From sequence record OP870145.1: a stretch of DNA of 64,000 nt; one strand, 5' to 3'. Position 1 is the stretch's first letter. The number at the start of each line of letters is the position of its first letter. Of this stretch, positions 16,901 through 22,984 are shown piece after piece. The notes beneath the pieces were generated by a model that was not told the DNA's origin, searched no databases, and was given only the letters and a program-made list of their open reading frames with translations. The position numbers and the translations under genes are program-made. This DNA comes from Escherichia phage vB_Eco_F26.

Positions 16901-18997
16901 TTATCCTTGAACGAACTTGTAAGGCATGTTTGCAATATCTATGCAAGACGCAATAATTCCAAGAGATGATTCTACTTTCTGTTTAACATTTGATGAAACA
17001 AATGATGCAAAGTCAACTCTGTCTTCTATTTCAATATCACCTGTCATTGCAACTACTTCGCCAGTTTCCATTAGACGGTCACCGTCATAAATTACTGATT
17101 CGGTGAGTTCTTCCGTAGTCATAACTTCAGCTTGAATGAGTTTTGTATTATTAGATGTTGTTCCGTCATTATTAGAAGCATCAGTTATTTTATTAACTTT
17201 GACCATCAATCCGCGCGGTAGAATAACTTCAGCTTCTGTTGCTATTCCGAGACTTCCTGGATATACAACATTAACTTTATGAGCTCCATCAATTGCCCAT
17301 CCTATTTGAACTTTAACGTATTCAGGATTTTCTTTATACGCTCTTATTTCGTTTGGATTAATAGTTATTCCTTCTTCATTTTTATCAACTGTTAATTCAT
17401 TGCGAGCTTCTGGTTCTAAAAGACCGATACCAGCATGTGTAATTCCAAAACGTCCAAAAATGATAGGAGTTAAAGAAGTAGATACAAAATTTCTGAAATA
17501 GAACACTTTATTTTTAACTAGTGCTTCGTATATAGGAGCAGTCATGCTTTGAGCACGATAAACTGTAATGCCTTCTGGTATACGGTCACCATTTTCAAAA
17601 GCTGAATCTAAATTATTTATCGCAGATTCAATTTCTTTTTCACTCATTACATCATATCGTTCTGGATTGTAGCGGCCTAAAAGAAGATTATTGATGTCAG
17701 TATATCCTGATCCACAATATTCTCTAATGCCGCGCTTTTGTGATGGAGTATATTTAGAACCATCACGGGCAATAGTAATATCAATCATTGGACCTGCACC
17801 AATTCCAGAAAAACTATAAATCATTCGTTTGAGGAATTTAGTTTTTGCTGCGTTCCAGGAATTTTTAGTTATTTCTTCCCAGACTTCATCTGGCTGTCCT
17901 TTACGGGTTTTATTATGTTTATCAAGCCAATTATCTTTATATTCTTCAAAGAATTTATTAACAGCTGCTGCGTATTTCTCTAAACATTTTATTGAAGTAG
18001 TTGGTTCATTTTTAATCGCATTAAGAATTACATCTTTAATTTTTTCAGAAACTTCATCAACCTCACTTTTTGAAAAGAATTTATAGTCATAGTGAAGTTC
18101 ATTTGCAGTTCCTTCAGCAATAATTTTTGCTGCCTTAGTTTTAGAAGCTAATGAATTAATTCCAAGCTTCATTTCTTCTGCTTCGGGAATTAAAGGAGCG
18201 GTAGCAGGTTTATTAAAATTAGCTGCGGTAGATTCATACTTCTGGAATAATTCACTTTCAAATCTAGAAGATTCTAATGATTGACTTTGCGCAATTGCTC
18301 TACGGGAAATTTTAACTTTAACAATAACAGCTTGGTCAGAACGTTTATCATTTTCTTGTGCAATAGATGCTGCAATTGCCTCATTTTTAGTTACTTGAGC
18401 TCCGGTATCTTTATTGATATAAACATCGCCGACCTTCGATTCAACTTTAGTAAAGAGCTCGGTACTAATTTCCGGAACTCCTGGAATGTCTTCTAGTGAT
18501 ACATTTTTGCGATGTATAAGAATATATGCATACTTTTTATCATAATCCCAGAGTTCCTTAAGAAGGACGTATCTGCCGCCTGAACGACTACGGATAAGTC
18601 TATCAGCAATAACTTGAATTTGTCGAGCTTGACCAGCAGTTTTAGACTTAAGAATACGAAGCATACAGGCATCAATTTTATACTGACGCATTGTTTGCAT
18701 TGCAACAGTAAAAACTGAATTGATGTAATTAATTGGGCTTGGACCGAGACCTTTTAATTTAGCAATTGAACCTTTAGCAGTTAGTGTAAAAGGAACAATG
18801 TGCATCATTTTATCGCCCATCTTTAAATCACGGTTAGTATCACCTCCAGATGTATAGGTACATAAACGAAAGCCTGGTTGTTCAATTGCGTCATCAACAT
18901 GAACTGAAAAAATTTGCGGTATTTTCTTCTTTGGATTTAAGTTTGTAATCGGAAGAGTAGTATCTTCGTCAAATAATTCTGTAATTAGTTCCATCAT
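16901..18997 (-). CDS. alt: Alt ADP-ribosyltransferase (packaged head protein)
   Basis: 698 aa; T4 position between gene 54 and gene 30. Confidence 0.85.
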   Translation of the reverse strand: MMELITELFDEDTTLPITNLNPKKKIPQIFSVHVDDAIEQPGFRLCTYTSGGDTNRDLKMGDKMMHIVPFTLTAKGSIAKLKGLGPSPINYINSVFTVAMQTMRQYKIDACMLRILKSKTAGQARQIQVIADRLIRSRSGGRYVLLKELWDYDKKYAYILIHRKNVSLEDIPGVPEISTELFTKVESKVGDVYINKDTGAQVTKNEAIAASIAQENDKRSDQAVIVKVKISRRAIAQSQSLESSRFESELFQKYESTAANFNKPATAPLIPEAEEMKLGINSLASKTKAAKIIAEGTANELHYDYKFFSKSEVDEVSEKIKDVILNAIKNEPTTSIKCLEKYAAAVNKFFEEYKDNWLDKHNKTRKGQPDEVWEEITKNSWNAAKTKFLKRMIYSFSGIGAGPMIDITIARDGSKYTPSQKRGIREYCGSGYTDINNLLLGRYNPERYDVMSEKEIESAINNLDSAFENGDRIPEGITVYRAQSMTAPIYEALVKNKVFYFRNFVSTSLTPIIFGRFGITHAGIGLLEPEARNELTVDKNEEGITINPNEIRAYKENPEYVKVQIGWAIDGAHKVNVVYPGSLGIATEAEVILPRGLMVKVNKITDASNNDGTTSNNTKLIQAEVMTTEELTESVIYDGDRLMETGEVVAMTGDIEIEDRVDFASFVSSNVKQKVESSLGIIASCIDIANMPYKFVQG

Positions 18998-19048: not shown

Positions 19049-19235
19049 AGTAATCTAGTGGTAAGAGAGTACGATATATTTCAAACTTTGGTCCTTTTTC
19101 ATAGGCATCAAATGCTTCTGTGAATTTATTATAAGCGTATGCATCTACAAATTCGAGAATGACTTGTGATACAGAAGTAGAAACATCTCCACCTTCTTTT
19201 TGAGCAATGACAATTGTTTCTAAGTAAGCTTTCAT
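19047..19235 (-). CDS. hypothetical protein
   Basis: 62 aa ORF, start overlaps gene 30 stop. Confidence 0.4.
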   Translation of the reverse strand: MKAYLETIVIAQKEGGDVSTSVSQVILEFVDAYAYNKFTEAFDAYEKGPKFEIYRTLLPLDY

Positions 19236-20695
19236 AGACCAGTTACCTCATGAAAATCACCAAATACATCCTCGAATGTATTAGCTTTAGTTTTATCTTC
19301 GCGTAAACGAATCGCAATCGGAAGAAATAATTTAACGTAATCAGTGCGGCCATCAGATTTTAACCAACCATTGCATTCGCACTCTAGAATTTTTCCAATA
19401 TAATAATTTTGGTTTTCCATAATGCGAGTACGGTCAAGTTCATGTGATTTTACGCCGGCTTTATCTTTTAAGCCTGAACCAGCATTTACCTTAATTTTTC
19501 CACACTCTGACTCAAGAATAAATCCACCTGCTTTAGTAGGGTCTTTACGGTGAGGATAAATTCCTACAATTTTTAAATCAACATCAATTACTTCTTTAAA
19601 TTTATAGAGATTTTTTGAACGAGCATTTTCCCATAATCCATCGATATTTTTGAGAATAATACCTTCAAGACCTTGGTCAATATACTTTTTATAAATTACC
19701 TTAGCTTCATCTAGGTTATTTACTACCTGGTTTTCAATTAAAATTACTTTATCATAGCCTGATGTCATTTGTTCTAGTTTAGAAAAACGTACATCATATT
19801 TCAAACGAAATGCAGGAAGACCGTATATTTCTACCAACGGGACATAATCCCAAACCTGAAACTTCATGCATTGAGCTTCTTTTTCAGAAATGGTTCCCTT
19901 TAAAGATTTATTAGCGATTCCATTAGAAGTAGTACGTGATTCAGCTACTTCTGTGAAGTCTTTAACTTTACTGTTTTCAGGATGAGCATCAAAAAGAAAA
20001 TCTAGGCCTTCTGACTCCTTTTTAACTTGCTCATGGTATACCAATTCGCCATCAATTAACACGCCTTCTGGATGAATCTGGCGGGCTTCAGCGGTCATTT
20101 TGATTAATTCTTCCTTAAGAAGATCTAATCCTAGATATTCATTACCGGCTCGTGATAAAAGACGAACATCATCTAATTCATCACCTCTGACTTCGGCAAA
20201 GCACCGAGCCCCATCAGCTTTTAACTGGGCAAAGGCTGGAAATTTGATATTCTTATTAATGCCTTTTTCATCATAAGAACTTGCAAGCATTTGAGGTTGT
20301 TCAGGAATTAAACCTGGCCAAACTTTGTTTGCAATAGATACTGAAGCACCACATTCAAGGTCTCGCATCATCACTCGACGCAAAACTTCAACATCATCTT
20401 TTTTACCATCGGTGATATATCCAGTTAATTCCTCAATTGCTGCATTTCCAGTCAATTTCCGAGTAGCTAATGTGAATTCAATGAAGTCAAGCATATCGGT
20501 AAGAGTCAACATTCCAAAACTCTGGGTAGCAATACCAGGTTTAGGCCATTTCTTGATATAATACTGCAACCCACGAGAATAAGTCAGACGATATACTCGT
20601 TTAAGCAATTCATTATCTTTATTCTTTTCAAGAATTGCTTGCTTCTGCTTAGTTGAACCAATAGATGCTATTTCGTTCAGAATTTTAAGAATCAT
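19232..20695 (-). CDS. 30: ATP-dependent DNA ligase gp30
   Basis: 487 aa; adenylation motif KADGAR. Confidence 0.9.
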   Translation of the reverse strand: MILKILNEIASIGSTKQKQAILEKNKDNELLKRVYRLTYSRGLQYYIKKWPKPGIATQSFGMLTLTDMLDFIEFTLATRKLTGNAAIEELTGYITDGKKDDVEVLRRVMMRDLECGASVSIANKVWPGLIPEQPQMLASSYDEKGINKNIKFPAFAQLKADGARCFAEVRGDELDDVRLLSRAGNEYLGLDLLKEELIKMTAEARQIHPEGVLIDGELVYHEQVKKESEGLDFLFDAHPENSKVKDFTEVAESRTTSNGIANKSLKGTISEKEAQCMKFQVWDYVPLVEIYGLPAFRLKYDVRFSKLEQMTSGYDKVILIENQVVNNLDEAKVIYKKYIDQGLEGIILKNIDGLWENARSKNLYKFKEVIDVDLKIVGIYPHRKDPTKAGGFILESECGKIKVNAGSGLKDKAGVKSHELDRTRIMENQNYYIGKILECECNGWLKSDGRTDYVKLFLPIAIRLREDKTKANTFEDVFGDFHEVTGL

Positions 20696-20961
20696 TGTTC
20701 ATCCTTTAGAGTTTGGTTTACAGCTCTATTATAAATCAATTCATCATTAAGCTCAGTCAAAGACCTGTGGTACGTGGTTCTAACTTTATTTCCTTGCATC
20801 CAGTGCTTGATATAAATGAAACCTTGCTCTACGCATTTTTTAAAAATTCGTTCGTCTTTTTGAGCTCGGAATTCTGGATTGCATCTAAAAAATTGATTTA
20901 CGTGACCGTAATCACGTGTAGTATTACCTTCATTTTCATAAATAGTATGAACAACAAACAT
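20692..20961 (-). CDS. hypothetical protein (30.1 position)
   Basis: 89 aa ORF. Confidence 0.45.
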   Translation of the reverse strand: MFVVHTIYENEGNTTRDYGHVNQFFRCNPEFRAQKDERIFKKCVEQGFIYIKHWMQGNKVRTTYHRSLTELNDELIYNRAVNQTLKDEQ

Positions 20962-21800
20962 TAGAACGCTCCTTGAAAAATATTATCACCACTAGCAGGT
21001 CTATTATACAAATACTCTATGCCACCAGGTTTAATATAGTTCCATGTCTGAAACGGATGCGTCTGATATGGATGATATAGATGATTATAAGGATTAAATC
21101 CAGGAGTTCTCCAGGTAGTGTTCCAACGAAAAGAATCGTTTTTAATCATCTTTTCAATTACATCTTTTATAGCTTTTTCACTATCAAAACTTTCTTTATT
21201 TTCCTTTGGTGAAAAAAGCTTATTCTCTACATCGTTCCATGTATAAACTCGCTGAGCAGTTTTTGGAATATTGTCACGCTCCCCTCGAGCCATCCAATAA
21301 ACAGGAACATTTAATATTTCACTCGCGTGATCGCAGTGGTGAGCGAGATCGTCAATATAACAAATTACGTTATATTTCTCTTTTGCCTTTTTGAACAACT
21401 CTTCTTTTGAAGAATCATGACCACACATCAATACTTCTGAGAAGGCACCAGGAAAAAGAGCATTCAAATTAAATTGACGATTCAGCAGAGCGTCAATAGA
21501 ATCACCCAATGCTGTAACAGCTACAAAATTATAATCTTCTTTTAATTTGTTAATTACACACAGGGCATCTTTATATGGAGACAAGTAACGAATAAAATCT
21601 GAACGATTGTATTTTTCAATTAACTTGACGCCAAGTTCTTCATCACAATTAAAGAGTTTACCAGGAGAAATAAATTTCTCATCTTGGATCATTTTTAAAA
21701 TATGTTCTAACGGAAGATTATATTTCTGAGCAAAATAAGGAAGGCCTGATTGCCAGCTTAAACATACTCCATCAATATCAGTCAAAATAGTAGGCTTCAT
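20961..21800 (-). CDS. hypothetical protein, possible HAD-like phosphatase (30.2 position)
   Basis: 279 aa; N-terminal DIDGV motif resembles HAD motif I. Confidence 0.5.
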   Translation of the reverse strand: MKPTILTDIDGVCLSWQSGLPYFAQKYNLPLEHILKMIQDEKFISPGKLFNCDEELGVKLIEKYNRSDFIRYLSPYKDALCVINKLKEDYNFVAVTALGDSIDALLNRQFNLNALFPGAFSEVLMCGHDSSKEELFKKAKEKYNVICYIDDLAHHCDHASEILNVPVYWMARGERDNIPKTAQRVYTWNDVENKLFSPKENKESFDSEKAIKDVIEKMIKNDSFRWNTTWRTPGFNPYNHLYHPYQTHPFQTWNYIKPGGIEYLYNRPASGDNIFQGAF

Positions 21801-22261
21801 AGAGAGTCTCTTAATAGGTTTAACACATCAATAAATTCAGCTTCGGTTAGTATTGTATCATCTTTTGTTAGACCACTAGCCATGCTGTGCTTCAAAACTT
21901 TTCCTTTCGAGGCTTGTAATGCATCACGAAAGCCCTTGTTTTGGATCGCTGCTTCAAAATATGCATTTGTGTATAATTCTTTCCACGCCGGGGAGTATCT
22001 TGAAAACGGAACTCCAAGCCAGAAGAGGGTCCCACGGTCCTGAGCTCTAGCATAAGACCTTCCAGCTTGTTGAGCGGAAAGCCCGGATAACCCAAATATA
22101 CGACGTTGTTGTTCAACGTTTTTCACCTTGCATCCTTGGAGGAATCCTTCAAGACCTCCAAATTGAATACCATCCATAACGAAAGGCCATTGGGCGAAAT
22201 TACTTAATGCACATGATGGCCACCTAAAATTACTTCTAATCTCTAACTCAGACATTTTCAA
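21797..22261 (-). CDS. NADAR/YbiA-like (DUF1768) protein
   Basis: 154 aa; LSNFAQWPFVMDGIQF...EGFLQGCK resembles YbiA FSNFAAWPIKVDG...EHYFQAQK. Confidence 0.6.
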   Translation of the reverse strand: MKMSELEIRSNFRWPSCALSNFAQWPFVMDGIQFGGLEGFLQGCKVKNVEQQRRIFGLSGLSAQQAGRSYARAQDRGTLFWLGVPFSRYSPAWKELYTNAYFEAAIQNKGFRDALQASKGKVLKHSMASGLTKDDTILTEAEFIDVLNLLRDSL

Positions 22262-22454
22262 TGCTTATAATTTCAACATCAGCCCAATGACCATAGTTTG
22301 GTAGACGAAATTCAACTGGCCAGTTAGGGTCCTTTTCTAATATAATAGACTCAACTCGTGGTTCTTCATGTTCATCAGTATATGGATTTTTATCTGTTAC
22401 TTTATATGTGACCTTAATGTACTGAATTCCAAAAATCTTATTAATTATATTCAT
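22248..22454 (-). CDS. hypothetical protein
   Basis: 68 aa ORF. Confidence 0.4.
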   Translation of the reverse strand: MNIINKIFGIQYIKVTYKVTDKNPYTDEHEEPRVESIILEKDPNWPVEFRLPNYGHWADVEIISIENV

Positions 22455-22935: not shown

Positions 22936-22984
22936 AACATTTTCCTCAATAGGGGCCAAAGCCCTTTTCTTTTGTTTGTATAAA

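Follow-up and report, generated by a model that had tools for sequence, protein, structure and literature searches.

The window analysed here, 64,000 nucleotides of Escherichia phage vB_Eco_F26, is a Tequatrovirus (T4-like) genome, and the question it raises concerns a small minus-strand open reading frame lying not far from the ADP-ribosyltransferase gene alt. An earlier note had read this ORF as a YbiA/NADAR protein and had offered two possible roles for it, one in ADP-ribose or NAD metabolism and the other in counter-defence against toxins such as DarT. Which protein does the ORF encode, and which of these roles would it serve?

Gene identity and start codon

In the ORF listing, an uninterrupted frame of 154 aa initiated by TTG occupies 21797..22261 on the minus strand. 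The listing opens each ORF at the first start codon that follows a stop, and the 22261 coordinate is therefore mechanical. Two codons inside this frame is an ATG at 22255, which gives an 8-nt overlap with the TGA-terminated end of the upstream gene 30.4. This ATG was chosen because gene 30.3 of T4 has the same length (459 bp, 152 aa), and because the published numbering of residues E36 and K43 fits only when counted from it. The true start is almost certainly this ATG, while the TTG at 22261 is rejected as a start on the strength of the T4 annotation and the E36/K43 numbering. The ORF proposed earlier is real and belongs to the minus strand, which had not been stated, but its start has to be moved. 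The features of the locus are as follows:

16901..18997, minus strand: alt, encoding a head-packaged ADP-ribosyltransferase; located 2.8 kb downstream of adfN and annotated as Alt at the corresponding place in relatives
19232..20695, minus strand: DNA ligase
20961..21800, minus strand: gene 30.2, a predicted HAD-superfamily hydrolase (core, residues 1-200) directly downstream of adfN, whose stop it overlaps with its ATG (ATGA)
21797..22255, minus strand: coding region of adfN (T4 gene 30.3), running from the ATG through 152 codons to the stop
22256..22261, minus strand: two additional codons (TTG AAA) included in the coordinates of the earlier note, probably not translated
22248..22454, minus strand: gene 30.4, 68 aa, upstream of adfN, matching PHROG 2042

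The product agrees with T4 gp30.3 (NP_049816) at 150 of 152 residues, the only differences being the conservative substitutions A60S and I125M. It is clearly the same gene in the same genomic position and of the same length, and E36, K43, H123 and the C-terminal helix of the T4 protein are all present. Pfam PF08010 (Phage_30_3, "Bacteriophage protein GP30.3") is matched over the whole model (1-138/138) at E=4e-70, its 234 bits far exceeding the gathering score of 36, and there is a match to PHROG 652 as well. Agreement of this order with PF08010 and T4 gp30.3 lies well outside what chance would give. As in T4, 30.3 lies between 30.4 and 30.2, and the minus-strand gene order is alt, alt.1, DNA ligase, 30.1 (DUF3045), 30.2, 30.3 and 30.4, so that the alt–DNA ligase neighbourhood described earlier is confirmed. 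Genes 30.7 and 30.8, which lie nearby in T4, are however missing from the window phage.

The 2.5 kb around adfN match Escherichia phage vB_EcoM_F1 at 99.1% identity, and 668 phage records match this stretch; the adfN nucleotide sequence of vB_EcoM_F1 is the same as that found here. The frame is free of stops among 12 diverged relatives, and the third codon position takes most of the substitutions (e.g., 25/11/62 for positions one to three); together, these features indicate that adfN is under purifying selection. A promoter and terminator scan was uninformative, with 13 promoter-like sites against 11.6 expected.

Two annotation matters also touch this gene. The RefSeq record of vB_EcoM_F1 (NC_054912; locus L001, 4198-4578) gives a 126-aa "hypothetical protein" that begins at the internal Met27, a start that would remove an invariant SNF motif; since the DNA is identical to that of the window, this start is an annotation error. 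The second is 30.3′, an ORF annotated in T4 within adfN in an alternative frame and represented here at 21892-22116 on the minus strand (74 codons). Thirteen of 14 relatives keep this frame open, at nucleotide identities as low as about 80%. The amino acids diverge fast and the start varies among TTG, GTG and ATG, and a clear selection signal was not found for this frame.

The NADAR fold and its active-site residues

Even at E≤1, the window protein has no direct match to the Pfam NADAR model PF08719 (formerly DUF1768), and NCBIfam gave nothing for it. A single-sequence search of PDB sequences likewise returned nothing relevant, the sole match (E=0.98) being an unrelated ATP pyrophosphatase. 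Because there was no direct PF08719 match, homology had to be shown by means of profiles and structure.

To this end, 104 homologs were gathered, 56 of which, down to 34% identity, make up the family alignment. The family HMM matched E. coli YbiA (2b3w) in the PDB at E=0.0066, and hhalign of the alignment profile against YbiA gave a probability of 93.8% (E=1.7e-7) over residues 15-122. PF08719 was also matched individually by 7 of the 56 family members, the best at E=1.5e-7. An AlphaFold2 model built from the alignment was confident, with a pLDDT of 93.7 and a pTM of 0.89. The protein is a NADAR by fold, by profile and by its catalytic residues, and the original assignment stands. The profile search that the earlier note had proposed as its check came out in favour, YbiA being matched by the family profile with the catalytic Glu and Lys aligned. 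The motif on which the assignment had been based is present as SNFAQWPFVMDGIQFGGLEGFLQGCK, although the spacing between its DG and EGF is six residues and not the seven first given. The residues that bear on function, with the helix that follows them, are these:

22196..22204, minus strand: S18-N19-F20, the N-terminal NADAR "SNF" motif; invariant in the 56 homologs and aligned with S30-N31-F32 of YbiA
22148..22150, minus strand: E36 (GAA), catalytic glutamate; invariant in the alignment and aligned with YbiA E48
22127..22129, minus strand: K43 (AAG), catalytic lysine; at least 90% conserved in the alignment and aligned with YbiA K55
21887..21889, minus strand: H123 (CAC), last-strand histidine characteristic of the phage (gp30.3) NADARs as a clade; invariant in the alignment
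21803..21844, minus strand: C-terminal helix, residues 138-151, predicted in the model; intact here and missing from the RB69 allele

The invariant columns of the alignment include P13, A16, L17, S18, N19, F20, F25, E36, G37, F38, Q40 and H123. Of these, Q40 belongs to an E-x3-Q-x2-K helix and is paired by hhalign with YbiA Q52. In the T4 protein, E36A, K43A and truncation of the C-terminus have each been found to impair AdfN (PMC11825919).

The last-strand position separates the NADAR groups, being Glu in YbiA, Asp in the BC4488/DarG1 proteins and His in phage NADARs (PMC11125620). The structure model places H123 in a strand spanning 120-122/123. From sequence, its register is ambiguous by one residue, since hhalign sets it opposite YbiA E125, whereas MAFFT sets it opposite H126, with K122 opposite E125. 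In either case, YbiA carries its last-strand Glu (E125-H126) where the window protein has K122-H123, which places the latter outside YbiA proper. Identity to both YbiA and a Phytophthora NADAR (8bau) is only about 20%, and the chromosomal surroundings of the YbiA gene (dinG/ybiB, LexA-regulated) are unlike those of adfN.

Probable counter-defence against DarT1

The function of this gene is already known from work on T4 and its relatives. A survey found the NADAR domains of T4-like phages to be early genes, expressed with ADP-ribosyltransferases, and reported phage NADARs in about 27% of myoviruses (PMC9503650). Subsequent work in Toxins (2024) named them "gp30.3 proteins" and showed that all NADARs tested were specific for guanine-ADPr; the T4 phage NADAR hydrolysed guanosine-ADPr in vitro and left thymidine-ADPr untouched, and it failed to rescue cells from DarT1 (PMC11125620). 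The methods of that paper give the T4 gp30.3 construct as residues 1-208, as opposed to the 152 aa of the T4 protein, and the protein tested may have come from another T4-like phage or may have carried extra sequence.

A study in Nature Communications (2025) traced the ability of T2 and T4 to resist DarTG1 to the 3′ portion of gene 30.3 and gave the gene a new name, adfN, for anti-DarT factor NADAR (PMC11825919). Purified T4 AdfN stripped ADP-ribose from DarT1-modified DNA, and ectopic AdfN-T4 rescued RB69 on DarTG1 hosts (PMC11825919). In a transposon screen of T4, insertions in 30.3/adfN were lost specifically on DarTG1 hosts, and adfN was non-essential on K-12 (bioRxiv 10.1101/2025.11.20.689424). 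Activity on guanine-ADPr DNA, together with necessity and sufficiency against DarTG1 in T-even infection, is on record in this literature for a T4 protein that is 99% identical to that of the window, and the earlier suggestion of counter-defence against DarT is borne out by it. The present analysis adds no new biology in this respect, and the gene is ordinary for a T4-type genome. It does supply an experimentally backed name, adfN, for a gene that the closest GenBank and RefSeq entries still list as a "hypothetical protein".

The ORF is very probably AdfN (gp30.3), a stand-alone phage DNA ADP-ribosylglycohydrolase of the NADAR fold that counters DarT1. In this mechanism, the host toxin DarT1 of the DarTG1 toxin–antitoxin defence would ADP-ribosylate guanines of the phage DNA and block replication. 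AdfN, made early in infection, would then hydrolyse the guanine–ADP-ribose bond and restore replicable DNA, acting in effect as a phage-borne "orphan antitoxin". The SNF motif, E36, K43 and H123, the histidine particular to this clade, would serve in catalysis, for which the C-terminal helix would be required as well.

The importance of that helix is illustrated by phage RB69, a natural hypomorph at the same locus. RB69 owes its DarTG1 sensitivity to a T insertion that shortens its gp30.3 by 15 residues (PMC11825919). In the DNA alignment, this 1-nt insertion lies just upstream of the helix and creates a TGA, so that RB69 gp30.3 ends in ...ILT at 137 aa; over these shared residues it agrees with the window protein at 95% of positions, and it differs in missing the 15 C-terminal residues. 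The RB69-type frameshift is absent from the window adfN in both the protein and the DNA alignment, and the allele is intact and of full length. Gene identity, fold, conserved residues and the state of the allele are thus direct observations on the window. Because it carries the full-length allele, the phage would be expected to share the DarTG1 resistance of T4 and T2, and we infer that the A60S and I125M substitutions leave an AdfN that would behave like that of T4.

The relationship with RB69, a Mosigvirus, deserves a separate remark. Its 30.3 (locus L084, 10268-10681) reaches 95% identity to the window gene product, as compared with only 84-86% for the next-closest group among the relatives found (VR20, VR25, VR26, etc.), which hints at a recent exchange of adfN between Tequatrovirus and RB69.

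AdfN is an orphan and not a member of a DarTG1 toxin–antitoxin system. The DarG1-type NADAR antitoxins (BC4488 family, e.g., the Geobacter lovleyi NADAR 8bat) are longer (219 aa against 152 aa) and have Asp in the last strand where AdfN has His123. In contrast to these, AdfN has no adjacent DarT toxin and lies by itself in a phage early-gene block, with 30.4 and 30.2 as neighbours. Moreover, T4 AdfN gives no protection from DarT1 to cells that are not infected, and in published work it rescued T5 and Bas25 only weakly. Hypermodification of DNA was reported not to be the cause of these failures outside T-even infection, and a T-even factor was suggested as a possible requirement. Removing ADP-ribose from DNA may be only a part of how AdfN works, or else AdfN may depend on a T-even-specific factor, a puzzle already raised in the literature. 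Given their reported presence in so large a share of myoviruses, phage NADARs may also have targets other than DarT1.

Neighbouring genes and alternative roles

The earlier note had drawn on the neighbouring genes for its metabolic reading, and their linkage to phage NADARs was examined in 80 IMG/VR loci with gp30.3 relatives, 66 of them distant (36-45% identity). Every close relative, RB69 among them, has gene 30.2 beside adfN. The distant loci differ: up to 6 kb from the NADAR gene, 30.2 was found in 6/66, alt in 2/66 and the ligase in 7/66, counts that rule out 30.2 or alt as a conserved partner of phage NADARs. Unsupervised clustering of ORFs within 3 kb of the distant NADAR genes, made without Pfam labels and with NAD-salvage genes not specifically sought, yielded no neighbour family common to more than 7 loci. 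As for the two largest apparent clusters, they were artefacts, consisting of antisense ORFs that overlap the NADAR gene. The linkage of adfN to 30.2 and alt is local synteny, and the phage NADAR behaves as a stand-alone gene, which fits its description as an orphan antitoxin. PADLOC defence models had no match to either AdfN or gp30.2.

With 30.2 and alt unlinked from phage NADARs outside close T4 relatives, the argument from context for a role in ADP-ribose or NAD metabolism is weak and finds no support. A broader version of this idea is that AdfN mainly processes soluble molecules derived from ADP-ribose or NAD, such as immune signals or by-products of RNA repair, or else ribosyl intermediates of a riboflavin pathway in the manner of YbiA, with the reversal of DarT1 modification as a side activity. 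YbiA is, in fact, annotated as an N-glycosidase, and the inability of AdfN to replace DarG1 in uninfected cells would also be accommodated. Such a role is nonetheless unlikely as the primary one, given the DarTG1-specific genetic phenotype, the activity demonstrated in vitro on guanine-ADPr DNA and the lack of a recurrent neighbour family in the clustering above; as a secondary role, it is possible.

A further proposal would join AdfN to the translationally coupled product of gene 30.2 in a two-enzyme anti-DarT module, with gp30.2 as the missing T-even factor. Were this true, gp30.2 could, for instance, clear a phosphorylated ribose product or help to target AdfN. The earlier note's HAD-like phosphatase next door is right at the level of fold and motifs. 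Pfam and NCBIfam matches were not found for gp30.2, yet its family alignment keeps the four HAD motifs I-IV (D8xD10, T96, K132 and D150-D151), the structure model is confident over residues 1-200 with a Rossmannoid HAD fold, and the profile weakly matches the 5′(3′)-deoxyribonucleotidase 2jao. Motifs and model together argue strongly for a HAD-fold hydrolase. The overlap of the two genes at ATGA would suit such a module, as would the presence of 30.2 beside adfN even in RB69, where AdfN-T4 works, and the literature names no required partner. Against this, 30.2 is missing within 6 kb in 60 of the 66 distant NADAR loci, many other T-even genes share its distribution, and the text of the screen preprint (bioRxiv 10.1101/2025.11.20.689424) names 30.3/adfN as the DarTG1 hit and never mentions 30.2. 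The module is accordingly given very little chance of being correct, and AdfN acting as a stand-alone enzyme is the preferred reading.

Beyond its core, gp30.2 carries a tail at residues ~200-279 (20961-21200, minus strand) that is rich in aromatic residues, Pro and Asn (…WNTTWRTPGFNPYNHLYHPYQTHPFQTWNY…). The tail is modelled with low confidence, at a pLDDT below 55; many homologs lack it or have a different one, the conserved core being about 200 aa.

Alt and the Mod enzymes modify arginine side chains of proteins. That AdfN reverses modifications made by the phage's own Alt, ModA and ModB is hardly credible, even though this would explain its closeness to alt (2.8 kb away, on the same strand) and would suit the expression of T4-like NADARs alongside ADP-ribosyltransferases, for these arginine targets are at odds with the guanine-ADPr specificity of every NADAR tested, and alt occurs so rarely (2/66) near the distant genes.

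The alt gene of the window is itself a mosaic. Residues 1-246 and the last ~100 are nearly identical to those of T4 Alt, whereas the middle, including the ADP-ribosyltransferase region, shows about 50% identity with indels (698 aa against 682 aa, and 70% identity overall). This pattern suggests that the catalytic part of alt was swapped by recombination.

Finally, 782 bp present in T4 (locus L002, 8477-9258) and vB_EcoM_F1 are cleanly deleted from the window at 22964/22965. With them 30.7 and 30.8 are lost, and the 30.6 region directly adjoins that of 30.9. An effect on adfN can be dismissed, as the deletion lies ~700 bp upstream and takes away only 30.7 and 30.8. The same contiguous 30.6/30.9 junction occurs in natural phages, among them vB_EcoM_G8 and three BCP phages, and the deletion is therefore a natural polymorphism.
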